From: Tubulanus polymorphus
Taxonomy: Eukaryota; Animalia; Nemertea
Assembly: GCF_964204645.1 (NCBI RefSeq)
Contig: NC_134026.1
Span: 16,092,150-16,156,149, forward strand
Length of the DNA stretch: 64,000 bases
Direction: 5' to 3'
The translations under genes were made by a program, and so were the position numbers. The notes under the pieces were generated by a model. The model saw only the letters and a program-made list of their open reading frames with translations. It did not search any database and was not told the origin of the DNA. This document shows, piece after piece, positions 25,510 through 49,094 of this stretch (the first letter of the stretch is position 1; every line of letters begins with the position of its first letter).

Positions 25510-26038
25510 CTGGAAATAGAAATAAAAATAAACACGTGTATCTTTTTCAGTGAATTCAATTCCACAGCATTTGAATAATATACCTTTCTTTTGATAAAGA
25601 GATTTGAGTGTCCAAGTACACAAATCAAATCAACCTCTTGGTTGCTAAAATGTTTCGTATGATACGGTACCAAAACAATTTCATAGGGTAAAGAACCGTG
25701 TTAAATACATTAGGAAATCAAACACTGAACCAGCAGAATACCAGCGCCGCGCCCGAATCCAATGTCCCAGATAGACTTTGTTTGAAGGGGATTGGGATCC
25801 ACACCCAAAATATGTAATAAGATTAAAATCCACTTTATTCGAATTTAAAAGAAAAGAAATAAAATCTATTCACCCAGAATTAAAATCAAGATCTAGAAGG
25901 TACGACAGTTTGGGATTCTCTCTAGAATTTATCGATGTTGACGATGGCTCCGAGACGCACTTTTCGTAAGTTAAGTTTCGACAACGTCGAGCTTTTCACC
26001 CGTAAACTCTCGAAGTTTTACTGGGAATAGTTTATCCT

Positions 26039-26131
26039 AGTATTAGGAAAATGGCGCTTTCAGGTCAGAGGTCGAGAGGTCGAGACACCACTCATCACCA
26101 CAAGTAATTTGTTTTCCTAATAAATGGGAGA
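26039..26131 (+). repeat. Polinton left terminal inverted repeat (93 bp)
   Basis: Reverse complement of 48619-48711 with 3 mismatches; includes the PolB ATG. Confidence 0.95.
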
Positions 26132-29100
26132 GAGTGAACAATACACAGAACGAATTGATGTTAATGAAAATAAATATTATTGTACATATTGTAAAAAATA
26201 CATTGATAAATCTAAAAAATCACGTCATGAAAAATCTACAAATCAGATGAAAAATGTAATAGATTTTGAAACTCCAGAAAATTCCAATGAAAGAAAAGAA
26301 CGATTAGATGATATGAAAAAAGATGAAAATTAATGTATTGTTTGTAATGAATTTATAGTAAAAAGGAATTATAAAAGACATCTCGAATCACATAAACACA
26401 AACAAAATTTAAATAAAAATGTTTTAGGATCAGAATATTTTTATGATAAACCTCATCAAGTAGAAAAATCAACTTCAAAAACTAAATCCATTTCAAATAA
26501 ACCTTACATGGAAAATGTTAGAAATTATATCGATTCACTAGAAATAATGGATACAATTGAAATTTTAGAAACATTACATAGTAAAATTGGTCATGCAGCC
26601 ATTATATTTAGATTTTTTAAAGGTACAACAATAGAAGATTATAGTAAATTTATTGAAATCATGGAAAAAATACTAGATTTGGTAACAGATGTTGAATATC
26701 CAAAAATTAGTACTTCTGGGAAAGTAAGTTTTTTAAAGTCAGAAGATAAAATGGATTATGATATTCAAACACATTCTGAAGAAATAATTTCAAAAACGCA
26801 AATAAAAGAGAAGTTAGAAAAAATATTTAATGAATTTAAACGACATATTGAAGAAAGATATTTTGAGGGTTCTAGTTTAACATTGATTGAAATTATATTT
26901 TTAGATTTAAATGTTTATAATACAAAAATGATTAAAACATCAAAAAGTAAAACAATGTTTAAAAATGATTCAAACTTTATATCAGAAAAGGATATTAAAG
27001 CATCAAGTTATATCAAATTACCATTTACAACAAAAGCAGTAATAAATATTCAAAATGAAGATAATAAATGTTTTCTATGGTCAATTATTAGTCGCTTACA
27101 CCCAACTCAGGAAAATGTTTATAGAACAACAAATTACCAGGAATATGAAACAAAATATAAAATTGATCAATATCCAGTAACTATAAAAATAATTCCTAAA
27201 ACAGAAAAAGATAATGATTTAAAAATAAATGTATTCGAATTAATACAATTACCAAAGACAAAAGGTGAAAATATTAAAGATTATACATTAAAGCTTTATA
27301 TTTAACAGAATATTATGATGATGAAAAAGTTATAGATTTGTTATATTACAAAAAAGATGAAAATGAACATTATATGTGGTTAAAACAAATTGATTTATTC
27401 TTTAGAACAGAAAGTGATTTCAACAGTCATCATAAAATTTATCTGTGTAGAAAATGTTTATCTAAAGTTAGAACTGAGAATACATTATTAAAACATAAAG
27501 AATTATGTGATAATAAAGATTTTTACATATTAATAATGCCAACAGAAAAAGATTATAAATTGAAATTTACTAATCATAAATTTAAAAATATTGTTCCATT
27601 TGTAATTTATGGGGATTTTGAATCGTTGAATAAAGAATTTACTAATCAAGATAGAAAAGAAATATATAATAAAAAGCAAATTTTTAAATCAATGGATAAA
27701 GGAAATGAAATAAATGAAGATATAATTCAAGATCCACCAATTATAAACACAATTAAAAAAGTTCATCAAAGAGCTGCTGCTTATGGCATTTATATAAAAT
27801 CAAATTATCCTGAATTATATCAAAATCAATATATTCCTTTTAGAGGTGAAGATGTAGTTAATAATTTTTGTAACAAAATAATTGATTTAGAAAGTGATTT
27901 TGCAAAATTATTAAACAAAAATAAAAGAATAGTTATGACAAAAGAAGATGAAATTGATTTTAATTACTCAACTCATTGTTGTTACTGTGAAAAACGTTTT
28001 CATTCATTTGATAAAAAAGTTAGAGATCATGATCATTTAAATTCAAAATATCGTCGAGCTGCTCATGAAGATTGTAATTTACAAGCTAAGAAAGTTAATT
28101 TCGTACCAATATTATTTCATAATTTATCGGGTTATGATACCCATCTATTTATAAAACAGTTATCAGGAAAATTGGGCACAATTAATCAAGAAATAGAAGA
28201 ATATAATGCTATGAATGGTATAAATGTAAGAAAATATGATTTTAAATTATTAGCTAAGACATCTGAAAATTATATTTAATTTCAATTTGATTGCATTAGA
28301 TTTTTAGATTCTTATAGATTTCTAGCAAGTTCATTAGATAATTTAGCAAAAAGTTTAGTTGATAATGATTTTGTAATAACTCGACATTATTACCCAAATG
28401 AACAAGATTTTAAATTATTGAGATATCAAGGCGCAATTCCTTATTCATTTTATAAAACACATGATGATTTTAATGTAACAGAATTATTAAAAGAACAATT
28501 TTATGATCAATTAAAAGAGGAGTATGTGAAAGATGAAGTGTTTAATAGAACATTAAATATTTGGAATCACTTTAAGATAAAAAATCATGGTGAATTACTA
28601 GATTTGTATTTAAAATCAGATGTTATGATATTGGCTGACATATTTGAAAAATTAATAGAAGTTAATTTGAATCATTTTAATGTTGATCCTTGTTATTGTT
28701 ATTCAAGTCCCGGTTTAACCTGGCAATGCGGTTTAAAATATACAAATGTAGAAATAGATTTATTAAAAGAACCAGACATGGTTTTATTATTTGAAAAATC
28801 AATTAGAGGTGGAATTAGTGGTGTTATGGGAGACATTTTAAAGCAAATGATGAATATAAATTAGTATATATTGACGCCAATTATTTATATGGTTGGGCAA
28901 TGATGCAACCTCAACCATACAATAATTTAATATTAGCAGAAGTTGAAAATTATGATAAAACTGATTGGGAAAGCGCAATTGCGAGTTTAAAAGATGAAGC
29001 ACCAATTGGTTATTTCTTTGTAGTTGATTTGGAATATCCTGATAACATAAGATTTAAAACAAGAAACTTACCTTATTGCCCAGAACATTTAACTGTAGAT

Positions 29101-30692
29101 GATAGTTATTTAGGTGAATACCAGAAGAAAACAAAACCGAAAGATCATGTTTTTACAGAAAAATTGATATTAACACAAAATAATAAATATAATTATATTG
29201 TTCATTATAGGATGTTAAAATTTTATTTAAAACAAGGAATGAAATTAAAGAAAGTACATAGATATATTGAATTTAATCAATCGAAGTGGTTAGAAAAATA
29301 TATAGATTTTAATACACAACAGAGAACCATATCAAAAACAGATTTTGAAAAAGATTTCTTCAAATTAATGAATAATAGTTTTTATGGTAAAACATGTGAA
29401 AATATTAGAAATAGAAGTGATATTGAATTAGTAAATAATTCTGAACGATTGAGACATTTACAATCAAATCCTAGACATTTAGGAAATAAAAGATTTGAAG
29501 ATTATTTAACAGCGGTTAAATTAAAAAGAACGTCAATGAAATTTAATAAACCTATATTCATTGGTTCAACTGTTTTAGAAGTATCAAAATTATTAATGTA
29601 TGATTTTTATTATAATGTTTTACAACCACTTTTTGGGGAAAAGCATATTGAAATATTATATTTTGATTCTGTAACAGCTGACACCCCAATATTATTAAAA
29701 TGTAATAATAAAATATTGGTAAGAAGAATTTCAGAAATAATTCCAAAACAAAATGAATGTTATATTTCATATGATGAAAAAGAATTAATACAAATAAATG
29801 AATTAATGGATGTTTGGACAAGAAATGGATGGAAAATATTAAAGAATATTATTAGGCATAAAACAAATAAGAAAATCTATAGAGTTAGAACTAAATTAGG
29901 GTTTGTAGATGTTACAGAAGATCATAGTTTAATTAAACGAAATGGTGATGAAATAAAACCAACTGATATAAAAATTGGAGATGAATTATTACATAAAAGA
30001 TTTTTCCAAAGAATGAATCATATATCATTTGATGAAATAATTGATAATATGTATAATATAGAATCCGAAACATTAGAAGAAAAAGAATATTTTATCAAAG
30101 GATTTTTTTATGGGAGATGGTTCAGCAGGTGTGTATAATTATGTTAGTGGAACTAAATATTCTTGGTATTTATGACTTGAAATTATTAGAAAGAATTAAG
30201 AAATTCGGTGAAGAAGTTTACTCAAATAAAACATTTAGAATCGTGGATCATATGAAATCATCGGCAGTTTATAGAATACTCGTTAATAACCCTAAAGATT
30301 TTGCAATTAAATATAATGATGAATTCTATATTCATGCAATAGTTAAAAGTAATACTTCAACAAAAGAAAAGATAGTTCCAGATTATGTATTAAATGCAAA
30401 AAATAATTTAAGAAAATGGTTCTTCATTGGATTCTATGCTGCAGATGGTTCAAAAAGTTTCAAAAACCACAAAACAATATCTTTAGCTCTAAAAGGAAAA
30501 GTTGCTATATCAGGATTGAATATATTATGTAATTCATTAGGTTTTAATATGAATATTGGATTGATTAAATCTAAACCAAATTGCTTTAATTTAAGCCATG
30601 TAGAAAATGAGTTAACTGAAGAAGATTTATTCGAAATATATAACCCAACAGATTATGTTTATGATTTATCAACTGAAGATGGCACATTATAA
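26124..30692 (+). pseudogene. polB: Protein-primed family B DNA polymerase with N-terminal C2H2 fingers, EndoVII-like insert and an intein; several stops/frameshifts, 3' truncated
   Basis: CTYCKK..H and CIVCNE..HLESHKH fingers, NKCFLWSII, ExoI YGDFES, DHDHLNSKYRRAAHEDCNL, ExoII FHNLSGYD, ExoIII YLKSDVMILADIF, motif A YIDANYLYGWAM (~28861), motif B KLMNNSFYGK, and motif C YFD interrupted at 29667. Confidence 0.93.
29668..30689 (+). mobile_element. Intein with LAGLIDADG homing endonuclease at PolB motif C (pol-c site); C-terminus deleted
   Basis: Block A SVTADTPILL directly after YFD; block B VDVTEDHSLI (TxxH). LAGLIDADG motifs FIKGFFMGDGS (restored by removing one T at ~30105) and FFIGFYAADGS; block F DYVYDLSTEDGT; terminal HN/TDS missing. 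Confidence 0.9.
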
Positions 30693-31485
30693 AACATAAA
30701 ATCAATATCATCAAACTTGAAATCACTATTGGTTTCTTCTTTTTCATTTAATTGTTTTTGTATAATTTGTTTAGGTTCTTCCATTTCATTTTTCTCATTT
30801 AAATAAAGTTCTATCTTGTACCACATTTCATCTCGATGTTTCTAATATCGATGTTTAAAAAATTTACAATCTTATTTAAAAAGAATAAATAATTAATTGA
30901 ATCTGTTATTCTATTATCCACATAATATTTTGATATGTTTGTGAATGTTTCTTTTATATTTTCCATATCTCCTTCTGTTAATTTAGGTTTTTTATAATAA
31001 TCGTTAAATAATAGATATAAATACATTTTCTTTTCTTGTGTGTTAAATGTTGACGGAATAATTGTTTTTATAATATCTTTTTTAGTTATTTCACCATTTT
31101 TATTTTCTATTATTTTCATTTTCTCAAGCCATTGCTTATATTCTGGTGTATGATTTTCCATAGAAAAGATATTAAATATTTCATCTAGATATTTTAATTT
31201 TGGTTCTATAAGAATATCTCTAGTTTTTTCATCATCCCATAAATTCTTTTGCCATCCACATTCATTACAAAATATCACAGGACCTTCTTGAATTAAATAC
31301 CTATAAATACATTGTGGGCAATTTGTTCTATCATAGCTTGGTAATAGATCATCATTGAGCTCTTGGTATTTTCTTACGTTTTCTTTAAGTTTTATTGTTC
31401 TATTATGTAGATTTAAATTTCTTGTTGTAATGATCAATTTACAATATTTACAATAATATGTTATTTTTACTTATTCATTATATTG

Positions 31486-31632
31486 TGTTTCATCTCATCA
31501 ATCGCAGGAATATAATATTAGAGAGAAATATCCAGTAGAACTTCAAAAACGGAGCCAACTATTAGAGTACGGTTTCAGAATATATTCTCCATAACTGTCT
31601 ACACTAAAACACGGACCGCCAACGACGGAACA
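31486..31632 (-). repeat. BEL 3' LTR (147 bp)
   Basis: Adjacent to the PPT; matches 37626-37769. Confidence 0.95.
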
Positions 31633-31969
31633 TCCTCCCCTTCTGAACCCTTATGGGGTTCACAATTAACTAAACTAAACACACAATCTTAATTACCTAA
31701 ATTAAGCTAATGTAAAGAATCTATTATTGGCATCTTAACTAAATTACTAATTAACTAGTGTATTAAATCGTTTCTCGCAAGATCTTCACGACCTTGCAAG
31801 GAGGGCGCTAGGCTCACCTCCACAATCTATCACTAAATAACTGAACGCGTTAAGCGTATATACATGTACAATGTTTCTCCACGAAAGAACGCACGAACTG
31901 TTTTTATAAATTTACGAACTGTTTATGAATTTAAACGCGGTATTACACTACTAGAGTTTATTATACGAA

Positions 31970-34900
31970 TTACACATAGTCTCTGTCACAGTTCAAATGA
32001 CACAGTTTATTCACCGCGCGAACATATTCCTTTCCCCGACATCGTACACGAGCTACACGAACGAGTTCATCCTCTCCGGGATAAACACCGACGACCTTCG
32101 CAAGTGGCCATCGTCCACGAGGATTTTCTTCGTCTTTCAACATGACGATATCGTTCACCTTCAAGTTCTGTCGCACTCGCACCCACTTGGGGAATGTGTT
32201 CAATGGAGTGAGATATTCCGACGACCACCGTCTCCAAACCTTCTTTACCAGACTTTGCACGTACCGCCATCTATTTCTAGGATTGAACGCTACTTCATCT
32301 GTTATGCTTTGTGCCAAATTACCGCCGACTTGGCCGTGTATGAAGTGATTAGGCGTCAACACTTCTTCATCATCAGGGTCATCAGAAACGTACGTCAATG
32401 GTCTTGAGTTTAACAGACCTTCAGTTTCGACGATTGCAGATAGTAATTCTTCATCAGTTAATTTTGCGTTGCCAAGTATCGATTTCACAGCTTTCTTGGC
32501 TTGTTTGATCATAGACTCAAAAACCCCACCATGATGTGGCGCAGCGGGTGGGTTGAACTTCCACTTGATGCCCTGAGAAGCACCCTTCATTTTGATCTCA
32601 TCTTTATCGAGCATCTGCACCAACTGCCTAAGTTCTTTCTCGCCTGCTGTAAAATTCGTTCCGTTGTCACTGGTCATAACGCTAGGTTTTCCTCTCCTAG
32701 CTACCATTCTGGAAAAGGCTAGAAGAAAACCAGCTGTGTCAAGGGAATATGCCATTTCCAGATGGACAGCCCTTGTCGCCATACATGTAAATAGACACAA
32801 GTATCTCTTTGCAGTGCATCGTCTAGTGATCTTCGTTGTAAACGGACCGCCATAATCCACCGCACAAGAAAAGAAACATCGTAGACTGACCAGCAGACGT
32901 GAACGTGGTAGCGGTGCTACTTTCTGATTTATGCCGAGTTCTTTTCTAGTATGACACAGTTTGCAGTTAATTTTGCAACGTTTTACTTCTTCCCGGCCAT
33001 CTATCACCCAATATTTTTGCCGCAGGTCAGCCAAGACTGCATTTGTACCACGGAAATGACCACCGAATCTGTGTCTGTCTTTAACAAGCAGCCTTGTGAT
33101 CTCATTTTTCTTAGGTAAGATTATTGGGAATCTCGTGTCATACGGCAAATCTGCTTTCTCCAACTCTCAAAATCCCTTCTGTATCCAGTATTGGTAATAA
33201 CTGCCTAAGCTGACTTTTCTTAGGCAAATCTTTACCCTTTGTCAACAAAGTAATCTCTTCACCAAATGCCTCCATCTGACAACACTCGAACAAGTTATTC
33301 TCAGCTTTTTCAAGTTCTTCAACTTCCAATACCACTTTATTTGAATCTTTGGGTTCTACCGTTTTTTTGTTTTTCAATATCTTGTAGTATCGAAACACTA
33401 GAGCTACGACTGCTTTCAACTTCGTAAAACTAGTGAATCATCTGACATCAACTACCAATTGTTGCGGCTTCTCAGCCGTAACAGTCTGAAAGACGGACAG
33501 CATCTTGCCAACTTCATTTTCAGCTTCCAGGCTCAGACCTTTACCGAGGGTTTTCTGTGGCCAAGAATTCTCCCCTTCATACAGGAACCTGGGACCACAA
33601 AACCATCTATGCTTCATGGTCATGTCTTCGACTTTCAGTCCCCGTGTCGCATCATCAGCTGGGTTCTGTTGACCGGGAACATGGTTCCATTGAACAGGCT
33701 TGGTAACTTCTTGGATTCTCGACACCCGATTTGCAACAAACGTCTTATACGTCCTGGATTGTCCATGAATCCACTGTATAACGTCCATACTGTCACTCCA
33801 AAATCGGTGCGATTCAACAGGTATATCTAATGCTTTTGCAACTACTTCAGCTAGCTTAACGCCTACTACAGCCGCCATCAGTTCCAATCGTGGCACACTA
33901 GTACACTTCAGCGGTGCTACTTTTGCTTTCGCACCAACCAGAGCAACCTGAACTTCATTATCTTTGAGTTCATATCGAACATATGCACATGATCCATACG
34001 CCAATGTCGAAGCATCAGTGAACACATGTATTTCTGTAGTTTTTACATCATCAGCTGGTCTCGAACGATAACATCTCGGAATCTGTACTGAATCAATGTT
34101 CTCCAACTCAGCCAACCAATTATTGAAACTCTGTTTAATATCATCTGGTAATGCTTGATCCCAAGTAATACCACGTAACCACGTCTCCTGGAACATCATT
34201 TTTCCTCGTATAACAACTGGTGCCAAATACTGCAGTGGATCAAAGAGTGTGGCAATACAACTCAACAGACTACGCTTTGTCGGGACTCCACTCCTACCGC
34301 AACTAGCCGGAGTTGAGTACGTCAAGTAATCTCCCACTGCAAACCATCGTACACCCAAAGTCTTCATATTTGCATTGTCTTTGTCAACTATCTTCAAGCA
34401 ATCCTCAATATCTCCAAGAGGTAAGCCATCTAAAACAGCCATAACATTACTACACCATCGTCTTACATCAAATCCTGCAGCAGATAATACAGATGATAAC
34501 TCGCTTCTTAGAGTGGTCGCATCCACAACATTCTCCACTGATGTAATTAAATCGTCCATATAGGTTTGCTTGTGAATAACTTCAGACACTCTTGGGTTTT
34601 CTTCACTGCAGTTTACATGATGTCTAAAAACAAACTGTGCCAGAAATGGCGAAGCCTTGTCCCCAAACATCAATCTAGTTGCTTCATAAGTTTCAACTGG
34701 CGAGTGTGTATCATCACGCCATAACAATCGATGGTACCTTCGATCATCTTCAAACATTTGGACCTGAGAAAACATCTCCTTAATATCCCCTACCAATGCC
34801 ACCGGTTTTGTTCGGAACATAATCAATATTTCTACTATGTTATTCTGTAGATTAGGGCCATTCATCATAACATCATTCAAACTCATATTTCCAGTTTTGG

Positions 34901-37214
34901 CAGCAGAATCATGTACAATGCGAACTTTTGTTGTTGTCTTATCTTCACGAACGACTGGGAAGTGTGGTAGAAACCAGCTACTATTTTTCTCTAAATCAAC
35001 ATCTGACACTTTCTGCAAATAACCTTTCTCTACGTTCGCCATAAACACATCTCTGTATCGTCGAGCAAGCTCCTCGTCTTTGAAAAACCGTTTTTCCAGC
35101 ATCATCAGGCGTTTACTAGCATCTTCAAAATTATTCGGTAAATACCTCTTCTCCTCTTTCCAGGGAATTTGGACTTCATATCTATCTCCGACTTTTTTAA
35201 TGGAGGTTTCCGCAATCTCCAATGCAGCCTTCTCTTCAGATGTGTACTTTAGGTCATCCTGATCTTGGAATCCAATTAGATCCTGATCCCAGATCTTTCT
35301 CAAGCAATCATCAGTTCTTATATCGAAGGACCTAACTTCAGTTCTATACGCATGAGTTGTCGTAAAACTCTGGTTTTCACTAAATCCATTTGAAACTTTT
35401 CCAATCACTGTCCAGCCCAGTGGGGTTTTCCGGGCCACTGGACCCCCTACATCACCACGACGTTCTTCAATGGCCGCCATCAATTCTGGTTGATCTGCAC
35501 CTATCAACATGTCTACTTCAGTAGACGGTAGTTTTGGAAATTCAATATCCTTCATATGTCCCCAATCAGCCTGGTGTCGCCTCCAATCAATTGGTTTGAT
35601 ACCCTTACACATAGAGTCCATCACCCATGGTTGAAGCAGTACATCAACCTTCCCATCCAAACTTTTCAGTTTCACACTGACTTTTCGACTTTTCAATTCA
35701 CTCGCACCAGCCAGAGTATTCATTGTTATATGGCGTTCTGACTCCCGTTCCAACTCCATAGCAATTGCTACATCATCAGATATATAGCATGAGTCAGATC
35801 CGTCATCCAGGAAGGCGTTGATGATTATTTCTTGATCTCGAGCGCCAACCAATCTAACCGGCACTATTCTCAAAGCTACTCGCCCCGGAGGACATCTACC
35901 TCTTTGATGTGTTGCATGAGGGTTCACCTCCTGAGGGTTCAGCTCTTCATTTGCATTATGTTTAGATTCCTTAGGGTGATGAAGGTGTGTATGGTGTCGC
36001 TTATTATCCTGACAACCTTCAATTCTGCATCCAGAGAATCTGGTTTCTCTACACTGACCACTTCTATGTCCTTTATTTAGACATTTAAAACACAGACCAT
36101 ACATTTTTGCACGTTCCCATCGATCACCTACAGCCATTTTCGTCCAGTTATCACATTCCGTCAACTTGTGGTTCTTTCCGCATATGTAACAACCTTGTTT
36201 TCTCATAAGACCAGTACTGAAAGACCGTCTTTTTTCTCTGGGAATTCTAGTACTAGACCCTTTTGTTTCTTCAGCTTCAAGTAAATATGCTACCTCTTCT
36301 GCCAGCCAATTCGAAAATTCCTGGAGGTCATCCGATTTTCCAGAACTCTTAACATGACGATGAAAGTCCACCAACATTTTTTCTGGTACTTTCTTTTGAA
36401 CTTGAATATATAAGGCACTGTCAGTTTCGAACTCCACTCCACTCCCTTTCAAGGATAATTTGGTGACCATGTCACATAGTCTATCTGAAAATATTTCCAA
36501 TGCCTTATTATTCCCTTCTGTAATTGAGCTTGTTTCCATTAATCTATCTAAGTGCTGTCTAATGAGACGTTTTTCACCACCGAATTTCAGCTCCAATTTC
36601 TTCAAGGCTGCTTCATATTCTGTTTTTGTGTAACCAAGGTTACCAATGATTTTCAATGCTTTCCCCTTTAAACAGTTTTTTAACATCATCATCTTCGTTT
36701 TTGAGGGTAGCTTTGTGTTCCCTACAAAAACATCAAATTGGTTTCGCCAGTCATGGTAGTATTCCTTTTGACCATCGAATGTAGATAATTCTGGTTTTTT
36801 CAAACCCTGAAAAACATTACGTCGTGGTTTATCATCTTCTGCTTCCGTTGAAGTATCGGAATGACGTTTCTCGTCGCTTTCTTCATCTGAGGTCGATTCT
36901 ACTTGTCGATGTGGTCTTCTTGTCTTGTCCTGGCTCTTGTCAATACCTGCCGGCCTTTTTTCTCGCTGTTCTAAAATCTGTTTAAGGTTGAATATAAAGA
37001 GGGACAATTCTTCTAAATATTCATCAGATTCTAACACAAATTTGTTGTACTCCACTTCATCGATCTCCAGAATAATTTCAGATGTCTCAGTATCTAATTC
37101 TGAGATTGCTTTAAATGCATCAGCTAATTCCCCTAATGCCCATCTGCATTTTTGTAATTCCTTCTCATCTAATTTCTTCTGATCTAACAATTTTTCATCA
37201 ATTTTGGACTTCAC
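31970..37214 (-). pseudogene. BEL/Pao gag-pol polyprotein (gag CCHC, protease, RT, RNase H, integrase); one in-frame stop (33440-33438) and one frameshift (~33160)
   Basis: LCFKCLNKGH, AFLDDGSD, TPLGW, YMDD, FTDAS, VPRLEL, HVPGQQNPADDATRG, VDYGGP, SDNGTNF, WPLAKV. Confidence 0.93.
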
Positions 37215-37625
37215 TCTTGTGATTTTTGCTTTGAGTGGTGTCCTTTTTCGTTTTCTAAGTTCAAAATCTCTTCTCTGTTCAGCGTTATGGTCAATTACGA
37301 AATTTTGTATCTTTCTGGTCGGTATATTCCAATCTCGATCGTCTTCTTTCGGTAATTAGCAATCCATCAAATTTTCATCAGCACCCTGCTTTATTTTTCT
37401 CGAAACTGACTTTTTAAGATTAATACTACAAGCACACAATTTTTCGACAGTATTAATTCGTATTCAAGTCAATTCTGCATCAATAGTTAGATTTTTATCA
37501 ATTCTTCGTTTCATCAGAAATTAACACGACGTCGACTCACGTGTTTTCGCTTAAACATCAAATTTTGGTCATCTGTAGTCATCCAATCATCAAATCTTTA
37601 CATCATCCGCCTCCGAGGGACCATA

Positions 37626-37769
37626 TGTTTCATCTCATCAATCGCAGGAATATAATAGAGAGAAATATCCAGTAGAACTTCAAAAACGGAGCCAACTATT
37701 AGAGTACGGTTTCAGAATATATTCTCCATAACTGTCTACACTAAAACACGGACCGCCAACGACGGAACA
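37626..37769 (-). repeat. BEL 5' LTR (144 bp)
   Basis: Adjacent to the PBS; matches 31486-31632. Confidence 0.95.
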
Positions 37770-38338
37770 TATTGTTTATCTAACTTTTCAACTGTTTCTT
37801 TATTATCTGGTAACGTTTTCTCATATTTTATTTTTTCTAATAAACTATTTTTCTTTCATTGAATTCTGTTACAAATTTATTAGAATTTTTATCTATATGT
37901 ACTTTACGAAATTGATGATTCTCCCAATCTTCTATATTTTCAGGGCTATATTTTATTCGACAATGCTCACAGAAATGATCTTTTATATTATCCTTATCAT
38001 AGAATAAGAAAGGTCTTTTCGAAATAATTTCAGGTTCAGTTTCAACAGAATTACTATTACTTTCGTTACTATCAACATTAACCGTTGTGTCATTAATTTT
38101 ACACTTCTCTGAATGTTTTTTTAACATAATTTCTTGAGAATAATTCATTACAATTTGGGCAGTTTAGTTTAGGGGGTTTATAATTTTTATCGTGTTTTTT
38201 TCATATGTCGAGCCATATTACTTTTTCTTAGAAGTTCACCACAAATTTCACATGCTATCTTCTCATCCATTTATTTAGGAAAAATTTTATTGAAATTAAT
38301 TTTTAGTGATGAGCGGTAATTTCTTTATGTTATAAATA

Positions 38339-39095
38339 ATGGTAGAATTAAAAGAATACAGAATATTTGTTGATTCTAGAAAACTTACAAATTACAAATC
38401 ACATAATTTACTAATACAATTAGATAGAGAATTTAAGAATTGTGTAGATTTGAAATTAGTTTAATGTAAATTTATGTAATTCTTTTCATAATATATCGAA
38501 TAAAAGTCTTGATCATTTAGCTTTTGAAATTCATGTTAGAAATTTGAATAAATGGTTTCATCTTTATCTAAAACCAGGATTATATAATTTAGAAACATTA
38601 GCGCAAGAAATAAATAGAAGAGCTCGTTTAAAAATGGGTGCAGCTGCTAGATTTGAAATTAAATTTATTAAAAGTGATAGTTCGAATAAAGTAAGCATAA
38701 AGTTAACTAATGAACAACATAGATTTCTAGTAAGAAAACCTTTAGCTAAACTGTTTGGAATTCTTCCAGATAGAGATTATTCAAGTATCGAAACTTATAC
38801 AAATTTAATGACTTTTACACACTTTTATATTTATTGCAATTTAATTGATCCTACAAAAACATTTGAAGCAACTAAAGATACAATTTGTAATTCTAGTATA
38901 TTAAATATTATACCATTAAAAAATGTTAAACAATTTGGAACACAAATAAATTATAATTTAGCTGAATGTGATTTTAAACCTTGTATTCCACATTTCAATA
39001 ATTTCAAATTAGAAGTAAGAAATCACAATGGATACTTAATTGATTTGAATAACTTTCCTGTAATTTATGAATTAGTTATAAGATGTAAAGAGTAA
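38339..39095 (+). pseudogene. Minor capsid protein (penton), frameshifted near 38462
   Basis: NSFHNI..LKPGLYNLETLAQEIN...FYIYCNLID...LEVRNHNGYLIDLNNFPVIYELVIR matches the Polinton single jelly-roll penton pattern. Confidence 0.75.
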
Positions 39096-39111
39096 TTTTT
39101 TTGATATATAA

Positions 39112-39459
39112 ATGAATATAACTGTTGGACCGAGCATATGTTTTGGATTTAATTTTGAGAAAGAAATGAAATTTAACATTACTGATGTAATAACACATAT
39201 CAAAAATATTGTATTTTCTAATGAAACAACATTTGAGTATGAAAAAACAATAGATAAAGAAACTTTAAATGTAGAAAAGATTACTTATTTAATTAGAGAA
39301 TCTTTAAGATTTTATGAATTAGATGAAGATTTTATTATCGATGATATTAAAAAAATAATAATTGAAATATATACAAATGAAACTAGTAATGAAATAAATG
39401 TTGAAATAATCATCACTAAGATAACTAAATATTTTGAAGATGGTAATTTTTTTGATTAA
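39112..39459 (+). CDS. Polinton hypothetical protein (115 aa, acidic)
   Basis: Intact ORF with TAAATG start, tightly packed with its neighbours. Confidence 0.6.
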   Translation: MNITVGPSICFGFNFEKEMKFNITDVITHIKNIVFSNETTFEYEKTIDKETLNVEKITYLIRESLRFYELDEDFIIDDIKKIIIEIYTNETSNEINVEIIITKITKYFEDGNFFD

Positions 39460-39462
39460 TAA

Positions 39463-39684
39463 ATGAGTGATAATAAGTGGATAATAACTGGATTATATAA
39501 TGGAGCCTTACTATCCGTTGGAACTGTTGGTTATTCAATGGTATTAAAAAAAGTATTTAAAATGGGAAGTGTTAATGTTGATAGATTTGATATAAATGAT
39601 ATTTTAAAATTAACATTAGCAGTTACTTTATCTAATTTAACTATTGATTATTTGGAAAAACAAAAATATATTCCTCCTATATAA
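39463..39684 (+). CDS. Small hydrophobic Polinton protein (73 aa)
   Basis: TAAATG start; two hydrophobic segments; ends DYLEKQKYIPPI. Confidence 0.65.
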   Translation: MSDNKWIITGLYNGALLSVGTVGYSMVLKKVFKMGSVNVDRFDINDILKLTLAVTLSNLTIDYLEKQKYIPPI

Positions 39685-39708
39685 ATGCGTAATTATTTTA
39701 CTAAATAA

Positions 39709-40131
39709 ATGGCATCTGCAATTATAACTATTATAGGATCGGCAATTGTTAACGCTTTAGCATTTACTGGTGGTGGATATTTATTTAAGCATATTGATAA
39801 AAATGGTTCATTATCAGAACAAAAAAGACATAACTTAGCATTAGAAAAATATAATAAAGCTGCAGAAGAATATACAGAAAAAATACAAAACTATATGGAT
39901 TACATCAATAAAGAATTATATGATCAGAAGATTTCACATAGAGATTTTCAATCAGTCGATGATGCAATGAGTTTATATAACGCGGTAACCAATAAAGAAA
40001 AATTACATCTATACAAACCTAAATTATCAGATTATTATACACCAAGTAAAGAACAACAGAAATATGAAATAATTTGGATTTTAGGCGGAACTGTTATTGT
40101 TATATTTGTAGCATATAAATTTACTAATTAG
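39709..40131 (+). CDS. Polinton membrane/coiled-coil protein (140 aa)
   Basis: TAAATG start; N-terminal hydrophobic GSAIVNALAFTGGGYLF, EQKRHNLALEK coiled coil and C-terminal TM segment. Confidence 0.7.
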   Translation: MASAIITIIGSAIVNALAFTGGGYLFKHIDKNGSLSEQKRHNLALEKYNKAAEEYTEKIQNYMDYINKELYDQKISHRDFQSVDDAMSLYNAVTNKEKLHLYKPKLSDYYTPSKEQQKYEIIWILGGTVIVIFVAYKFTN

Positions 40132-40151
40132 TAATTTATTTTGCTAAATAA

Positions 40152-40588
40152 ATGGATGATAAAGTTGATAATATTGATATTATTCCTCATGATATAAATA
40201 AAACTAAATTAAATACATATTTAGAAAACCAAATATTAGAATTTGAAAGTGACTTAAAGATAAAAAAGAAAAAATATTTAAAAAGTAAAATTATATATTA
40301 TCTTATTATCAGTGGTTCAGTTACAATTAGTTCTGTTTATAAAATTTCTAGCAATATTCAGTCCATTAACACCTTTAGCTATATCAATTGGTGTGCTAGG
40401 ATTAAGTTCAAGTGTTTTAACTGGTATAAGTTCAAAATTAAATATAAAAAGTAATAAAAAAAAAAATTAAAACTAATATAAAAGAAATTAATAAATTGAA
40501 GAATACACTAGATTATATAATAAGTTTAAATAGCCATATAACAGTTGAAGAACAAGATAAATTATTAAAAGAATTAATAAATTATTAA
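40152..40588 (+). pseudogene. Polinton coiled-coil/TM protein, frameshifted
   Basis: TAAATG start; the hydrophobic segment continues in an alternate frame after ~40340. Confidence 0.5.
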
Positions 40589-40603
40589 TTTTTTATTATA
40601 TAA

Positions 40604-41880
40604 ATGGCAATTAGTTTTCCAAAAGCTTTTCAATATAATAAATCAATTAAATATAATATTCCAGCAATAGATTTTAATAAAGATATTACATATAGAAATA
40701 AAGTTTTAGATTCATTAACTAATTTAGAAATTTATATTACTGAAACTAATAATTTTAATGGAAAGATGGGAAATATATTTCATGTATATTTAATTAATTT
40801 TAAAAAATTGAAAGATGAAAAACAATGGTTATTAAAATCTAATATGAAGTATTGGCAGAACCAATTAAATTTTGCAGTTTATTGTGCAACAACAGGATGT
40901 GGAATAAGTTTGAATGATCATTTGAATAATTCTAAATATAAATTGATTCAAAGTTTATTTAGATTTCATACATACTTTCAAATAAGATTAATATTAAATG
41001 AATTAGAGACCCCTTTACCAGGATCTAGGTATTTTAAAGAGTTAGATAATAATATAAATTTATCAAAGTTTTTAAAATGTATCAAAATGTTGCAGCATAT
41101 TGTACACTTCCCATACCATCTAATACTTTTTATAATATCTATAATAATAACTTAGGTTATGGTAAAATAGAAACTAAAGATTTAGAAACATTAAATTTCA
41201 ATAAATTACCGAAATTCAATGATAATTTAAAACAAGAAAACAAAAACGGTTGGGTTTATTTTATTTTAGAAAATAGTGAAGGATTTACTAAAGCTGGTAT
41301 ACAAAGAATAAATCAATCAATTAGAACTTATTTGATATGTATTTTAGGTGCGCAAGTTGAAACAAGATCCCCAATAATTGGAAATTTAAATACATCATTT
41401 GATACACAGAAACAATTCAAAGTATTATTTGAAGATTCAATTCATAATGACAAAAATAGATCGATTGCAGAAAACATTGTCAGATATCAAAATTATTTAG
41501 ATAAATCACATATAAGATTAAATTATTGTATAGGCCCTAATCTATTAATTATGTCTAATGATTTAGGATTAAAGATGGGAAACATAATTGGTTACAATAA
41601 TCTGATAAAACTGCAACAATAAATAATTCATTTGGATTAAATGAAATAAATAAAAAGATTATTACTGCTCCAAAACTAATGGAAGGCGAAAAAAATTAAA
41701 AAAAACATATTCAATCAACAGAAACTAAAACTAAGAATATTTAATTAAATAATGATTATAAAATAAAAGATTACAATACTTCACACGGTGATATTCAACA
41801 TGATATAATTAAAACTGATAATGATAATAAATCCCATGAAAATGCTAAATTAGCTATAACTTGTATAGGAATTGTAATCG
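40604..41880 (+). pseudogene. Conserved-looking Polinton protein (YWQNQLNFAVYCATTGCGIS), frameshifted
   Basis: ORFs 40604-41155 and 41077-41622 overlap in different frames; KAGIQRINQSIRTYLICILGAQVETRSPI. Confidence 0.65.
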
Positions 41881-41883
41881 GAA

Positions 41884-43312
41884 ATGACAGAAGGTGTAGA
41901 AGATATTCCAATGGAAGACATGGGAAATAATAATGATGATAATAATGATGATGATAATAATGTTGTAACTAATAATGATAATGATGATGAAACAGCGTTT
42001 AATTCTTATTTAGGAAATAGTGGTTCTAATGCCCCATCAACAGATGAATATGATAGAAGAACTAGATCGAGAATAGATCCTGAAAATGAAAATTCAGATT
42101 TAGTAAGACAAAATTTAGAATATAATGAATATATTCATCATTTCCAACCTGTATGATCTGGATATAATATCAATGATAGAGGTGCTAGACTTTTAGTACA
42201 AGAATTAAAATTTTTAGATGGTGAACTTTATTATCGTTTGAAAGATGATTATTATATTGATATCTCTTATAAAAAACAAAACAAAATATTAGCAGAATCA
42301 ACTTTGCTTGAGTTAGACCTATCTAGAATTAAAAGAATAAGAAATAGTAATGAAAGAGAAACTGTTACCAGCACAGAAATTATTAAAAATGAAAGAGTAT
42401 TTAAACAAAGAATTAACGACTTATTTGAAACAATCAATAATAATTTAGAACCAGAAACAACTTCTGGTAAACTTAAATCAAATAAAGTTCCAATTGAAAA
42501 ACTTTTACCAAATGGATTACTTGATGCAACAGATCAAGAATTAGAAGATTTATATATATTTTCTGATAAAGCAATAAGAGTATATTAGTATAAGACTTGC
42601 ATCTGATAAAATTGCGCATGATAAAAGTATAAGAGATTTTAAAATTAGAACTTTGGAAAAAGATAGAACTGATAAAATTAAAGAAATAGAACACCTAAAA
42701 TTAGATAGAGATAATAAAGTTATTGAAGAAATTGAATTTAAAAAAAGAAATGCATATTTAGGAAAAGACAAAGATTATTTAGAATATAACATAGAATTTC
42801 AGAAAGAATAAATTAAATTATTATTAAAATCATTTGATTATAATATTAATAGATTAAAAGTTATTTTTAAAGATTTGTTGATAAAACCAAATTCTGAAAT
42901 ATCATAGAAAGACAGAATAAAATTATTATTTAAATTAGAAGGTATAACAATTCTTTCAATTCTAACAGCTGTAACTATGGTATTCACAACAATAGGTTTA
43001 GCTATATCAAATTCATTGAAATCTACTCCTACTCCCAATAAACCAGATAAACCCCCGAATGATAATAATTCTATACAAGATAAAGTTAAGGATGGTTTAA
43101 AAATATTAGCAAAATATTTATGGGAACTATCTAAAAAATCTGCTGCAGCTTTACCCGGAGTTATTGCATCAATTGTTGGTTTTATATTGAAATCTGCTTG
43201 GAATATTCTTAACTTTGCTGCTGAACATATTATTTTATTTTTAATTACAGTTGTAAGTGCAATTATTTTTGGATTAGTGAATATGATATCAAAAAATATC
43301 AAGAAAACATAA
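41884..43312 (+). pseudogene. Polinton acidic/coiled-coil protein with C-terminal TM helices, frameshifted
   Basis: Fragments 41884-42156, 42238-42588 and 42977-43312 (KSAAALPGVIASIVGFILK...IILFLITVV). Confidence 0.6.
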
Positions 43313-43362
43313 TAGAAAATAAACATGATTAAAAATAAATAATTAATTTTTTTGTTAAATAA

Positions 43363-44608
43363 ATGAATGGGAGTTATATAAGTCCTTCTGAGAATTCTAG
43401 AATATCTAATGCTATTAAAGCAGAAAGATCACATCATATAATTACTCATAATCCTTCTAATATTAATCCTGATGAAACTTTATATGTTAGAATCCCTAGA
43501 TTAACACAAAATACTTTTTATGTTCCAAATAGTATTTATTAATCAGCTGATATAAAAGTAACCGGTAATAATGATAATTATGTTATTGATAATGTTGGAA
43601 GATATTTGATTAAAAATTTAACTACGAAGATTGGTCCAGAAACGGTTTTCTCATTAGATGATTATAATTTATTTATGCTTTATAAAGATTTATGGTTAAC
43701 AAAAGAAAATAGAAATAATATGATATTTCAAGGGATCCAATCAGAAAACCAAAATAAATTAAGATCAGAAGCTAATAATGCAGTAGTAACTAATGATGTA
43801 GATAATTTGATTAAAAAGATTTATGGAAGCAAATAAAATTCCATTAGACTTTGAATTGATGAATAATAATGCACCTTTATATGAATACGCAATTCAAGAA
43901 GATGTTATATTCGAAATAACATTTGCTCCTGTAAATGAAATTGTATTATATAGCGTTGTTAAAGATATGGGTTATAAATTATCGAATATATGTTTAGAAT
44001 ATGATACAGTAACTGATGAAAATATTGCTAACTCAATTCAAACTCAATACAATCAAGGATTTTCATTATTATATGATTATATTGATAAATTTAAAACTGT
44101 AACTATTAATGCAAATGATGAAATAATTAATGAGAATATTAACTTCCCAAGAAGATCTATTAAAGGTATATTAATATTTTTTACCATTGCAACATATTCT
44201 AATGGCGCAATAAATGTTGATAATTATTATAATCCTGAGATAACAAAAGTAGAAATAACTATCGAAGGAATAGCAAATAAAATATTTTGTCAAGGAATGA
44301 GAATGATAGATCAATGGCCAGAAATTAGAAAACATTTTATGAATGAAAAAGTAAAATCATCTGAAAATTGTAATAGTAATCAAATTGAATATTATACCAG
44401 CAATAAATATGCATTATGGTTAGATTGCAGAACAACTGAAGATAATTTTTTACATGGTTCTGGGAAAAAACTACAGAACACTAAAGATGTAATACAATTA
44501 TTCATGAAAAAGAAGAAAGGAAGCTTAAATTTCAAAATGCACATTTATATTATATCTGACGCGCAATTAAATATTATGAATTCTCAATTAGAAAGTATTC
44601 AATATTAG
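43363..44608 (+). pseudogene. Major capsid protein (double jelly-roll); one stop (~43540) and one frameshift (~43830)
   Basis: MNGSYISPSE..IKAERSHHIITHNPSNINPDETLYVRIPRL..NVGRYLIK..YKLSNICLEYD..NINFPRRSIKGIL..YYNPEITKVEITIEG..KYALWLD.RT.EDNFLHGSG..YIISDAQLNI; ~415 codons. Pattern recognised from invertebrate Polinton MCPs. Confidence 0.8.
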
Positions 44609-44638
44609 AAATATTAAGTTAAAATTAACGATATATAA

Positions 44639-45639
44639 ATGGGTGGTAAAAAACTCCTAATACTAAAGAACATTATTTAAGAAATCTATATTACAACCCT
44701 GAGAGTTCGGTTGCTTATTCTTCTGTAAAAAATATATGGCGCCAAATAAAACAAGATAAATTTGATAAGATAATCCCACAAAATTTTGTTAAATATAAAG
44801 ATATAAATGATTTTATGTTAGAGCAACCAACATATACAACGCATAAAAAAATTGTTAGAAAATATAAAACTCGTAAAACTAAGTTATGTAGATCAACAGT
44901 GGCAAGGAGATTTAATTGATATGAAAAATGTTAAGAAAGATAATGATGATTATTGGTTGATCTTAAACATAATTGATATTTTTAGTCGTTATGTACGGAG
45001 CTTCCCACTTTATAGAAAAGATGCCCAAACATCACATGTTTTAAGAAAATTTCTTTCAGGTGGTAAACTAAAGCCAGAAAAAATTCAATTTGATGATGGA
45101 AAAGAATTTGATAATTCATCTGTTTATGAACTCTTAAATGTTCATAATATTAAATATTTTTCAACAAAATCGGTTAAAAAAGCAGCAGTTGTTGAACGAT
45201 TTAATAGAACATTGAGAACAAGAATATCAAAATATTTCACTATTGGAATGAAACCTATTGATGCTAGAAAACCTGAAATTGTTTGGAATAATTTATATGG
45301 GGCATTTCTTGTAGATGATTTTGGTGAACCTAAATTTAAAGTTGGTCAAAATGTTAGAATTTCTAAATATAAAAAGATATTCGATAAAGGATACGATCGA
45401 AATTTTACTAGGGAAATATACAAAATAAAAAAGGTAATAACAACAAAACCATATGTCTATAAATTAGAAGATTTAGATGGTGAAGAAGTTGATAGGTATT
45501 TTTATGAAGAAGAATTGAGTTTAACTACTGAAAGACTAGAACAAGAATATAAAATTGAAAAAGTATTTAAATAAAAACTGTTAAAAGAAAAAAATATTCT
45601 TTAGTAAAATGGGTTGGATGGCCAGATAAATTTAAGTAA
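44639..45639 (+). pseudogene. Retroviral-type (RVE) integrase with C-terminal chromodomain, frameshifted
   Basis: LYYNPESSVAYSS, QWQGDLIDM, IDIFSRY, IQFDDGKEF, KAAVVERFNRTL, PKFKVGQNVRISK, FYEEEL, YKIEKV...LVKWVGWPDKF. Confidence 0.92.
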
Positions 45640-45667
45640 GTAATCAAGTAAAATTAAAAATATATAA

Positions 45668-46275
45668 ATGAATAAGGAATCATTTATATTTGAACCTCAT
45701 AATATGTTAATTTCTGGCGTAACAAATTGTGGAAAAACTTATTTTATATTAAATTTATTAGAAACTATTTATAAAACTATTTTGATAATATAGTATCATT
45801 TTGTCCAACGTATGAATTTAATCAAACTTATGATAGAAATATTACTAGAAATAATAAATTCATTATATTAGATCCTAAAACAGTTAAAGAAAATTTAGAT
45901 AATTGTATTAAAATAGCAATTGATATTTATAAAGGATCAAATACATTATTCATTATAGATGATTGTGCTTATCTACATGATTCAAAAATTAGAGAGAGTG
46001 AGTTATGCTATTTAGCTTTCTCTGGGAGACATTTTGGGATAACAACATGGGTTTTAAATCAAAAATATAATTCAATTGTTAAAGATTTTAGGGAGAATAT
46101 AAGATTTCTAGTTTTATTTTATAACAAAGATAGAAAATCGATGAAAAATGCACTTGAGGAAAATGATATTATTCCACATGATTTACATAATGAATATATG
46201 GATAAATTGAAAAATAATAAAAGATCAAAATTACTATTTCGATTACAACACCCATTTAAATATGAATTTATTTAA
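45668..46275 (+). pseudogene. A32/FtsK-like genome packaging ATPase (absent from ORF track; 1-nt frameshift at ~45775)
   Basis: Walker A ISGVTNCGKT, Walker B LFIIDDC, SGRHFGITTWVLNQKY, FRENIRFLVLF. Confidence 0.9.
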
Positions 46276-46277
46276 AT

Positions 46278-46450
46278 TCAACTGGCTTGTTAATCTAGTT
46301 GAATTCTAGTTACATTCTAGTTGAATTCTAGTTATTGGTAGTTGGAACAAAATCAACTAGATTTAACAAGAAATAAATAAAAACAACAATATATCAACTA
46401 GCTTGATAATCTAGTTGAATTCTAGTTACATTCTAGTTGAATTCTAGTTG
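46278..46450. repeat. Duplicated ~55-bp block of 11-nt TTCTAGTT(GAA/ACA) units with hairpins, intergenic in the Polinton
   Basis: tcaactrgcttgwtaatctagttgaattctagttacattctagttgaattctagtt at ~46278 and ~46394. Confidence 0.85.
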
Positions 46451-46481
46451 CAACAATACAACTAATTTGTTTGTTATATAA

Positions 46482-47074
46482 ATGGGAGGTGAAAAGAAAA
46501 TAAAATCTAAAAATGGTGATGTTCCACTTGAAAAAACTTTAGATGATTTAGGAATAACAGAAACAAAATTAACTCCAGATGATGGTGCTTTAAATAATGT
46601 TACAACACAAATAATAATTATGAATATTATCTTTATTGCAAACATCAATTAGAAATATTAATAGCGTCTGGAAAATGTAAAAATTTTATCGGTAAAAATT
46701 TAACTTATAATGAATTAGATACAATGAAATCAGATGAAATTATTAGATTATTTAAGATTTATGAAACCGCGAGAACAGCTAGAATTAATGATGCGATATC
46801 AGAAAATGTAGTAAAAGGTTATAGTAAATTATGTAATCATATGCTGCCAATTCAAGATGAAAATAGATTATATGCTGATTTAAAAAATGATTATTTAGTT
46901 ATGACTGAATTAAATAAATGGATTGGATATTTATCATTTCAATTAGGTGGATTTATGACATTATTATCAACTGGAGTTATAACATTTTCAAATATTGAAA
47001 GTAAAAATATTTCTATAATAAATGAACAAGGTGGAAGAAGTGAAGAAAAAACCGAGAAGTCCGAAACAAATTGA
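46482..47074 (+). pseudogene. Polinton hypothetical protein, frameshifted
   Basis: TAAATG start; LIASGKCKNFIGKNLTYNELDTMKSDEIIRLFKIYE...LYADLKNDYLV. Confidence 0.6.
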
Positions 47075-47399
47075 ATGGTCTCGGCAATTAGGAATTAAAT
47101 CACAACAATATAAAAAAGCTGTAAAAGAAAAAATAAGTAATAGAAATGGTGAAAATATTGTTATTTCTACTCCATCTAATAAAAGATTATTTGATAAATA
47201 TCTATATTTTACAGCTGGATTTGTAATTGTATTCATTTTGATTGGGTGTAGTTGGTATAAGAAATCAAATAAAATTCATGATATTAATAATTCCGAAACA
47301 ACTGAAATTAAAATCGAAAATACTTCTGAAATTCCAAAATTGACAATAAAAAAATGGATTAATATTTTAGAAAAAAGCAAAAAAAATAGTTTTTTTTAA
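47022..47399 (+). CDS. Polinton basic protein with one TM helix (125 aa)
   Basis: TAAATG start; KKKPRSPKQIEWSRQLG; TM YLYFTAGFVIVFILIGCSWY. Confidence 0.6.
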   Translation: MNKVEEVKKKPRSPKQIEWSRQLGIKSQQYKKAVKEKISNRNGENIVISTPSNKRLFDKYLYFTAGFVIVFILIGCSWYKKSNKIHDINNSETTEIKIENTSEIPKLTIKKWINILEKSKKNSFF

Positions 47400-48299
47400 A
47401 TTGATTGAATATCACCTTGATATTAAACCTAATTAATAGTTAGTTAAGTTGTTTCTTATTTTGAAGCTTTTACTTGAATATTGTATTACAGTCGTTTCTT
47501 ATTATTAGTTTTTTCTTAAATTGAAAGATGGCAGCACTGGGTGTGATGCTGAAATGAATATTTGAATTTGAATTTGTTAATCAATTACCATGGATAATTT
47601 GATTAAAAATTAGATCATAATTAAGTTAAAAATCCATAATTCATTTATCAGTTTTCATTCTTATATTCTTTTCATTCGGAATAATTTGTAATTTCAAATA
47701 ACGTAAATACCGTTTATATTGACTTTTGAGTGTTTTAGCTAAGTATATAAGGCAATTCATTCCACCACTGGAGTGCCGCCGGGCTTGGCTTGCAGGGGCA
47801 TTTCGAAAATGCACCTTTGTCCACCCTCCGTGGTTCTCCTTCAGTTTCGACTTTCGATCCTCCTTTCGGGGGTAAGGGGTTGATAGGAAATGCATTAGGC
47901 GCCTTTATTGTAATGTGTTTCCTGTCAACCATTGAAGGAGAATTGGTGAGGCGTGGGTCGCAGGGGTGTAATTAGAAATGTTGGGAGATAGGTATCTCGT
48001 GGCTCCTCAAGTCAAGTCGGGTGGTTTTGCTAAAACTTACCTTGAAAACTGAATTCCTTTTAATCACGAGAGAGAATGTATCCTGTGTGTTGTATGTACT
48101 GCGTGCTTATTATATAACTGCTAGCTATCCAATATAACTACAACGTTTGAATTGCAACACCTGTTTGATCGATCATTATTCAAATGAAGTACTCTCTTAT
48201 AATAACATGTAACAGATGTTTGGCTGGCATGATTATAGTTGTTCGTAAAACGACTAAGGTCATATTGGATTCTAGATATTCATTATTTTTATTTTTCAT

Positions 48300-48626
48300 T
48301 TAATCAACAATTTCTAAATCATGATGACCGTCTTCATTTTTTCCATGATAGATTATTTTAAATCCTTCCAAATCTTTTAATTCCTCTGTACTCAATGAAA
48401 CCCATTTATCAGGTAAAAATACTTTAAATTCTCGCGATGTACTAACATTACAGTAGCTTAAATTCGCTGATACTTCCTCTTCATATTTAGTTTTTATCTT
48501 TTCTAATTTCAATATTTTATGTTCGATTTCTTTTGTAACATCAACTAACTTTTTTATTTCAAATTGTTTTTTTGCTGGTTTTATTCTGTTATTTATTGTT
48601 GCTAAGAATGCTTTTCTATCTCCCAT
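48300..48626 (-). CDS. Polinton right-terminal small protein (108 aa), possibly OB-fold/ssDNA-binding
   Basis: Intact ORF whose TAAATG lies in the right TIR; KILKLEKIKTKY...FKVFLPDKW...IIYHG. The fold assignment is a guess. Confidence 0.65.
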   Translation of the reverse strand: MGDRKAFLATINNRIKPAKKQFEIKKLVDVTKEIEHKILKLEKIKTKYEEEVSANLSYCNVSTSREFKVFLPDKWVSLSTEELKDLEGFKIIYHGKNEDGHHDLEIVD

Positions 48627-48711
48627 TTATTAGGAAAAAAAATTACTTGTGGTGATGAGTGGTGTCTCGACCTCTCGACCTCTGATCTGAAAGCACCATT
48701 TTCCTAATACT
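48619..48711 (-). repeat. Polinton right terminal inverted repeat (93 bp)
   Basis: Matches the left TIR; includes the ATG of the 48626-48300 gene. Confidence 0.95.
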
Positions 48712-49094
48712 TATCCTACTAGCTAAAGCCACCAGGGGCGGATCCATACCCAAATTTAAGCGGTAGCAATCATTCAATTGCCATGGGCACCTTCCCGAAT
48801 TTCTCGAACGACGAGGAAGAGAGCACCGAAGTTGCGAAGCCATCCCGGGTTGTTTGGGGTTCTCCCGCAAGAAATTGCTTGTTAAAATTTGAAGCACTAT
48901 CATCCCATTTGAGGCATCAACCAATCACACTGAGATTCGTGGAAAGTCACCACCAATGTTTTTTTTAAATGTTTGCCGCCAAATATCAAGAAAGCATTAT
49001 AGATATAAGGTCATTAAGCTATACGTATTAATCTACTCATCCCTGCTGAGATGTTAGAGACAGTTGTCTGAAGAGAAAACTTCACTAACCTGCG

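Follow-up and report, generated by a model that had tools for sequence, protein, structure and literature searches.

A decayed LAGLIDADG intein in a Tubulanus polymorphus Polinton and its relatives in protein-primed DNA polymerases

The protein-primed PolB (pPolB) gene of a Polinton in the genome of the nemertean Tubulanus polymorphus is interrupted at motif C by a decayed intein. The analysis covered a 64,000-nucleotide stretch of contig NC_134026.1 (positions 16,092,150 to 16,156,149, forward strand), called the window here, whose own numbering is used for all coordinates. Very probably, the insert is a decayed copy of a LAGLIDADG intein family that is specific to Polintons and occupies the pol-c site; intact members of this family are predicted to splice and have likely spread by homing. 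The intein is of a known type in a new type of host, with a Polinton-specific clade in protein-primed polymerases, a homing footprint and a presence in an animal genome. The polymerase and its insert comprise the following features.

26160..29667, + strand: N-extein of the protein-primed PolB, ending at motif-C YFD (PF03175, E 3e-5, one piece; tblastn of intact pPolBs)
29668..30689, + strand: intein with LAGLIDADG homing endonuclease, with two frame breaks and without block G (TIGR01445, 33.1 bits)
29668..29697, + strand: block A with Ser1 (SVTADTPILL), read from the sequence directly after motif-C YFD
29914..29925, + strand: block B, TEDH, read from the sequence and conserved in the alignment
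30091..30124, + strand: LAGLIDADG motif 1, split by a frame break
30420..30452, + strand: LAGLIDADG motif 2 (FFIGFYAADGS), from sequence and alignment
30651..30686, + strand: block F (DYVYDLSTEDGT), at the end of which homology stops; the C-extein is missing

An earlier, sequence-only reading had called a Ser-start intein here, and the sequence agrees with its placement of block A, TEDH, both LAGLIDADG motifs and block F, as well as with its two frame breaks, one inside LAGLIDADG motif 1 (near 30,103) and one near 30,170. The call also passed the profile check, the N-terminal 144 aa matching TIGR01445 intein_Nterm at 33.1 bits (E 8e-8; cut-off 24.5 bits). Pfam Intein_splicing matched at E 5e-4, under its cut-off, and Pfam LAGLIDADG_3 only weakly (E 0.045); both LAGLIDADG motifs are present with their acidic residues, and intact relatives exceed the Pfam LAGLIDADG_3 and Hom_end cut-offs. 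A Hedgehog/Hint origin of the insert was ruled out, because the insert has a LAGLIDADG domain and its matches are viral inteins.

The pol-c intein site has been described as YGD/TDS (PMC549080). In the three polymerases closest to that of the window (P0269, P0270 and P0272; 66–68% identity), all of them intein-free, motif C reads KHIEIM-YFD/TDS without a break, which fixes the insertion point of the window intein between the motif-C D and TDS, the pol-c allele that had been proposed for it. On sequence criteria, the insert is confirmed as a canonical Ser-start LAGLIDADG intein at the pol-c site of a protein-primed Polinton PolB. The N-extein is itself broken at three further places (near 27,290, 28,277 and 28,830). 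Block G with its terminal Asn, the +1 Thr and the entire C-extein are gone; when intact polymerases were compared with the 64-kb window by tblastn, no match to these parts appeared at E ≤ 1e-3. Because block G and the C-extein are deleted, the window copy is a decayed remnant and not a working intein, and would neither splice nor replicate.

The element that carries the polymerase, and its host locus, comprise the following features.

5148..5450, + strand: host gcm exon with GCM domain (PF03615, E 7e-26), about 20 kb from the Polinton
26033..26038, + strand: left target-site duplication, TATCCT
26039..48711, no strand assigned: Polinton/Maverick, AT-rich and decayed (TIRs, 6-bp duplication, matches to pPolB, integrase and ATPase)
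26039..26155, + strand: left TIR, 117 nt, 88% complementary to the right TIR
31486..37770, - strand: BEL/Pao LTR retrotransposon inside the Polinton (Peptidase_A17, RVT_1, DUF1759, DUF5641)
44822..45574, + strand: retroviral-type integrase of the Polinton (PF00665, E 2e-6; tblastn, viral contig L135, E 6e-40)
45775..46275, + strand: A32-like packaging ATPase (PF04665, 27.4 bits, above cut-off)
48595..48711, - strand: right TIR
48712..48717, + strand: right target-site duplication, TATCCT

The TIRs, the TATCCT duplication and the GCM exon show that the Polinton is truly integrated in an animal chromosome, as the sequence-only reading had held; to our knowledge GCM is animal-specific, and GCM and BEL/Pao serve here as animal markers. 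Without the inserted retrotransposon the Polinton is ~16.4 kb long, and its GC content is 0.21–0.27 versus ~0.38 in the flanks. A Pfam scan of 21 ORFs gave no match to a capsid or a protease. It is vanishingly improbable that the Polinton stems from contamination or faulty assembly and has no true link to the animal locus. The AT-rich segment is indeed unlike its flanks, and a Logan contig that spans 25,500–26,094 across the host junction, with zero differences from the window, may derive from the assembly's own source run. The perfect 6-bp duplication nevertheless refutes this reading, and the TIRs, the inserted BEL/Pao element and the multi-copy depth in a second study's run with the same species label also stand against it.

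That run (X5, raw reads) showed a depth of 152–294 over the intein and 7–19 over the flanks, the first intein bin (294) being close to the preceding extein bin (338). From this ratio of intein to flank depth, the species holds roughly 10–40 related intein-bearing copies. Most family reads were 85–95% identical to the window copy and carried common alleles that it lacks (26,039–31,485); at the break near 30,103, 171 of 238 reads differed from it. Within this family the window copy is an old and decayed member. At 30,688, four contigs of run X1 part from the window, as they would if the missing end survives in other copies.

Intact relatives of the window intein were found in other Polinton polymerases. 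The best match of its N-part was P0001, an intact 1,693-aa pPolB with a complete intein (66%), and the two inteins are 58% identical over 345 aa when the window intein is read with X at its breaks. A search with the P0001 intein returned intact pPolB carriers in 5 of the 120 best matches (P0001, P0005, P0123, P0133 and P0134). These match the Intein, LAGLIDADG_3 and Hom_end profiles, and their inteins all run from Ser1 to a terminal N/TDS, with a penultimate His in three and Ser or Lys in two. Broken or partial carriers were P0003, P0004, P0006, P0015, P0357 and L055 (one record with P0300). Carriers are uncommon, with 3/120 nearest pPolBs identified by Pfam label and two more by motif. A search of 50% representatives brought in 131 new proteins (119 RNA-primed PolBs, 3 topoisomerase II and 9 unassigned), none of them a new Polinton carrier, and no pPolB extein occurred in these top matches; intein-free cluster representatives probably hide further Polinton carriers in this set. 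A weak search, the GTDB scan with P0015, gave 206 pattern matches and no confirmed relative, and the phage collection gave one record at 30%. An animal host is demonstrated for the window copy only. One Polinton-type pPolB of the window's clade, P0271, has the UniRef label Sulfurimonas sp. and is probably a mis-binned eukaryotic element.

Compared with 363 inteins, the window intein had Polinton pPolB inteins as all of its 11 best matches (58–43%), followed by RNA-primed viral (giant-virus-type) PolB inteins at 38–41%; no match was labelled Mimiviridae. In an intein tree (LG+C20; rows thinned from 202 by length, 300–400 aa, and by identity; the long row P0103 left out), all eight Polinton rows formed one clade versus 46 others with an SH-aLRT of 100; all tree support values given here are SH-type. 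Within this Polinton-only clade the window intein pairs with P0001. Support for the clade was 100 without the last 12 residues, 98 in a Hint-only tree and 99 in an endonuclease-only tree. It was 71–76 once long phage-type rows were included, and the clade was absent from a tree of the 107-column Hint N-part alone.

These relationships bear on the earlier proposal of a giant-virus-style intein that this Polinton had acquired straight from a giant virus. The likeness to giant viruses stands for the nearest kin outside Polintons, but the closest relatives are other Polinton inteins. Since the nearest relatives are intact inteins of other Polintons, and the window intein nests among them in one clade (SH-aLRT 100), the proposed jump is unsupported. 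Nesting among inteins already common in Polinton pPolBs was what the sequence-only reading itself had named as grounds against a giant-virus origin. The Polinton inteins among which it nests are, however, not common, and none was found in print; the novelty therefore shifts from the window copy to the family.

The distribution of the intein among Polinton polymerases is patchy. In an extein tree of 127 rows, 10 are intein-bearing and 102 empty, which needs 8 changes with the 15 rows of unknown state excluded; its well-supported branches force at least 6 changes (8 rows labelled). P0005 belongs to another pPolB class, its extein being 24–25% identical to the rest and its intein 42–49%. The 90% cluster of P0123 has 136 members. 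Of the 15 that were listed, whose contigs measure 57 kb to 1 Mb, 7 are filled, 6 are empty and 2 do not reach the site. Inteins of this cluster are 346–348 aa long and form a precise in-frame insert (1,537 aa less 346 aa equals the 1,191 aa of empty alleles). P0123 (filled) and P0235 (empty) are 99% identical at residues 700–1029, 79% at 1030–1090 and 96% beyond. All 10 columns (of 1,191) that are diagnostic of filled versus empty alleles lie at 1035–1085, that is, from -7 to +44 around the site after residue 1041. Over 33 residues, the C-side of the tract is nearer to the carrier P0015 (76%) than to the empty allele (64%).

Local co-conversion is expected when a break made by a homing endonuclease is repaired from a diverged donor. 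The tract in the P0123 cluster reads as co-conversion of the kind typical of homing; the same tract would result from a single recombination event whose product then expanded clonally. It is likely that the scattered Polinton inteins reflect copying by their own homing endonuclease. That the intein is instead ancestral in Polintons, inherited vertically and precisely lost many times with no homing, appears improbable. The window polymerase and P0001 are adjacent in both the intein and extein trees, and three pairs have much the same identity in intein and extein (47–50%), both as vertical descent would have it; yet dozens of precise losses would be required (102 empty versus 10 filled), and neither the local co-conversion tract nor the presence of this intein in a polymerase class of 25% identity would be explained.

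Motif C varies among empty alleles. Of the 32 empty sites resolved in the P0123 clade, 20 have CDS or TDA in place of TDS, and in the P0123 cluster all five resolved empty alleles deviate from TDS. A pPolB clade in which no intein was seen has TDS in 39 of 40 sites (28 of them FTD/TDS); the rows behind these counts (P0264–P0380 and the P0123 cluster) are not independent. The variants may represent escape from the endonuclease. A broader scenario, in which the intein homes among Polinton copies in animal nuclei as a transposon-virus gene drive, has crossed between 25%-identical classes and drives motif-C escape (CDS, TDA, TDC), is put forward tentatively, as a possibility that we regard with some doubt.

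Homing of a splicing-competent intein would proceed as follows. The roles of the intein blocks have been described (PMC7765530), and by canonical intein chemistry the insert of ~350 aa would be removed through Ser1, the Thr and His of block B, the C-terminal Asn and Thr+1, which would leave the polymerase with a rejoined D-TD catalytic motif. Since the insert splits this catalytic motif, the polymerase would need splicing. Once freed, the endonuclease would cleave the motif-C site of an empty Polinton that shares the cell; the break would be mended on the template of the filled copy, and the cut allele would acquire the intein and neighbouring codons with it. Of these steps, the conversion tract itself is observed. 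Most likely, the family entered Polintons once, long ago, and then moved among Polinton lineages, one of which would have brought the intein into the animal germline as a multi-copy family. The intein may also benefit its carrier when viruses that infect one cell compete, a role put forward for Bodo saltans virus (PMC5871332).

As to where the Polinton family came from, a moderately probable source is the stock of pol-c inteins in giant-virus PolBs. In RNA-primed viral PolBs the family has 964 representatives at E ≤ 1e-30. A block-G motif, FN[CS]GFPLI, occurs in 7/7 complete Polinton intein ends and in 37/192 other inteins, and 15 of the 16 viral-collection loci with this motif are GVMAG-labelled. 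A Hint tree grouped the Polinton inteins with the FNxGFPLI giant-virus inteins (support 98), but the grouping vanished without the last 12 residues; it was discounted, because it depends on the very motif that defines the group. A direct jump of the intein from a co-infecting giant virus (Mimiviridae) into the window's own Polinton lineage would accord with the 38–41% identity of giant-virus-type PolB inteins at the same site and with the distribution of the block-G motif. It is highly improbable all the same, given that Polinton pPolBs supply all 11 best matches of the window intein and that it sits with P0001 in a Polinton-only clade. Direct homing between distant PolBs has been judged implausible (PMC549080), and relaxed viral endonucleases have been suggested to permit non-allelic spread (PMC10710043).

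A further alternative, which concerns origin only, is that a phage or prokaryote supplied the Polinton clade, which would then be either the sister group or the source of the giant-virus pol-c inteins. The long prokaryote/phage-type outgroups P0103 and L214 attach to the Polinton branch (support 97), as this alternative would predict, and loss of the giant-virus grouping with the last 12 residues also favours it. The branches of these outgroups are very long, however (2.3–2.9, a long-branch warning), both lack the shared block-G motif, and a tree that nests the Polinton clade in giant-virus inteins was not rejected (p-AU 0.31). The family is, moreover, vast in RNA-primed PolBs and rare in Polintons. 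On balance a phage or prokaryote origin is somewhat unlikely, and the trees lend the giant-virus-to-Polinton direction of the sequence-only reading mixed support, the outgroups speaking against it and the unrejected nested tree leaving room for it. Under the same alternative an animal-infecting iridovirus is a candidate donor, Iridoviridae being listed with DNA polymerase inteins (PMC5784728). Separately, the same intein family was observed in viral topoisomerase II (P0002, P0024, P0035, P0041, P0048, P0060 and others), at a QD/S...N/TDG-like site that represents another non-allelic jump.

Among known systems, the PolB pol-c inteins of giant viruses (Mimivirus, PMC549080; NCLDV DdDP, PMC5784728) share the insertion at motif-C D/TDS, Ser1, a terminal Asn, Thr+1, two LAGLIDADG motifs and a length of ~350 aa, and Polinton inteins are 38–48% identical to unnamed RNA-primed viral PolB inteins. 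In contrast, Polinton inteins make up a clade of their own, carried by integrating elements whose PolB is protein-primed (22–26% extein identity to NCLDV-type PolB). Among solved structures, the Polinton intein profile matched PI-PkoII best (PDB 2cw7, an archaeal PolB intein endonuclease; E 3e-7), over both the Hint and LAGLIDADG parts; this is a distant, archaeal protein of 537 aa. The closest precedent comes from Klebsormidium, Tetrabaena and a labyrinthulomycete, whose nuclear scaffolds contain intein-bearing polymerases of viral-like type (PMC10710043); there, too, an endogenous virus brought an intein to a eukaryotic chromosome. Those cases concern algae and a protist and were discussed with respect to large DNA viruses, whereas the present host is an animal, and its multi-copy transposon-virus has relatives with both filled and empty alleles. 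HNH/VSR nuclease inserts reported in the Polinton pPolB2 of nematodes, oomycetes and molluscs (PMC10748475) also place a nuclease inside a Polinton pPolB; the main text of that report has no occurrence of 'intein', 'Hint' or 'LAGLIDADG', whereas the Polinton inteins described here have splicing blocks and a catalytic-site insertion. A later paper that cites it (PMC11161782) speculates that such polinton pPolB nuclease inserts are 'intein invasions'.

Surveys assign the nuclear inteins of eukaryotes to fungi, algae and protists, and those of viruses to large DNA viruses (PMC5784728, PMC10710043, PMC7765530), with one naming fungi for nuclear inteins and NCLDV families including iridoviruses for viral ones (PMC5784728). 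The word 'intein' does not occur in PMC8502044 or PMC7544198, and PMC12220804 mentions inteins in general terms only. Searches of openly accessible papers yielded no Hint-bearing intein in a Polinton, a protein-primed polymerase or an animal chromosome; a prior mention of a Polinton intein may exist elsewhere. The family is a route by which inteins reach animal germlines, in this case within a selfish element and not a host gene, and as a dead copy in the window. Because homing needs two elements per cell, filled and empty alleles and conversion tracts record contacts between Polinton lineages. The tracts possibly record giant-virus contacts too, and such contacts bear on the question of whether animal Polintons travel as viruses. 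The intact members may also serve as a source of new natural inteins and endonucleases, whose predicted target is a polymerase active-site codon run.

Other sequences at the locus were also noted. The BEL/Pao insertion has LTR segments that are 99–100% identical and long ORFs of 1,305 and 398 aa, and is probably young. Fragments at 23,236–23,517 and 22,977–23,315 (- strand) may belong to a Harbinger/PIF-type transposase, to which they look similar. Within the Polinton, a 28-nt motif ending TAAATGAAT[AG] occurs four times between 39,091 and 45,674 (at 39,091, 39,442, 43,342 and 45,647); its first copy overlaps the ATG of the ORF at 39,112, and the repeated motif is possibly a shared expression signal.
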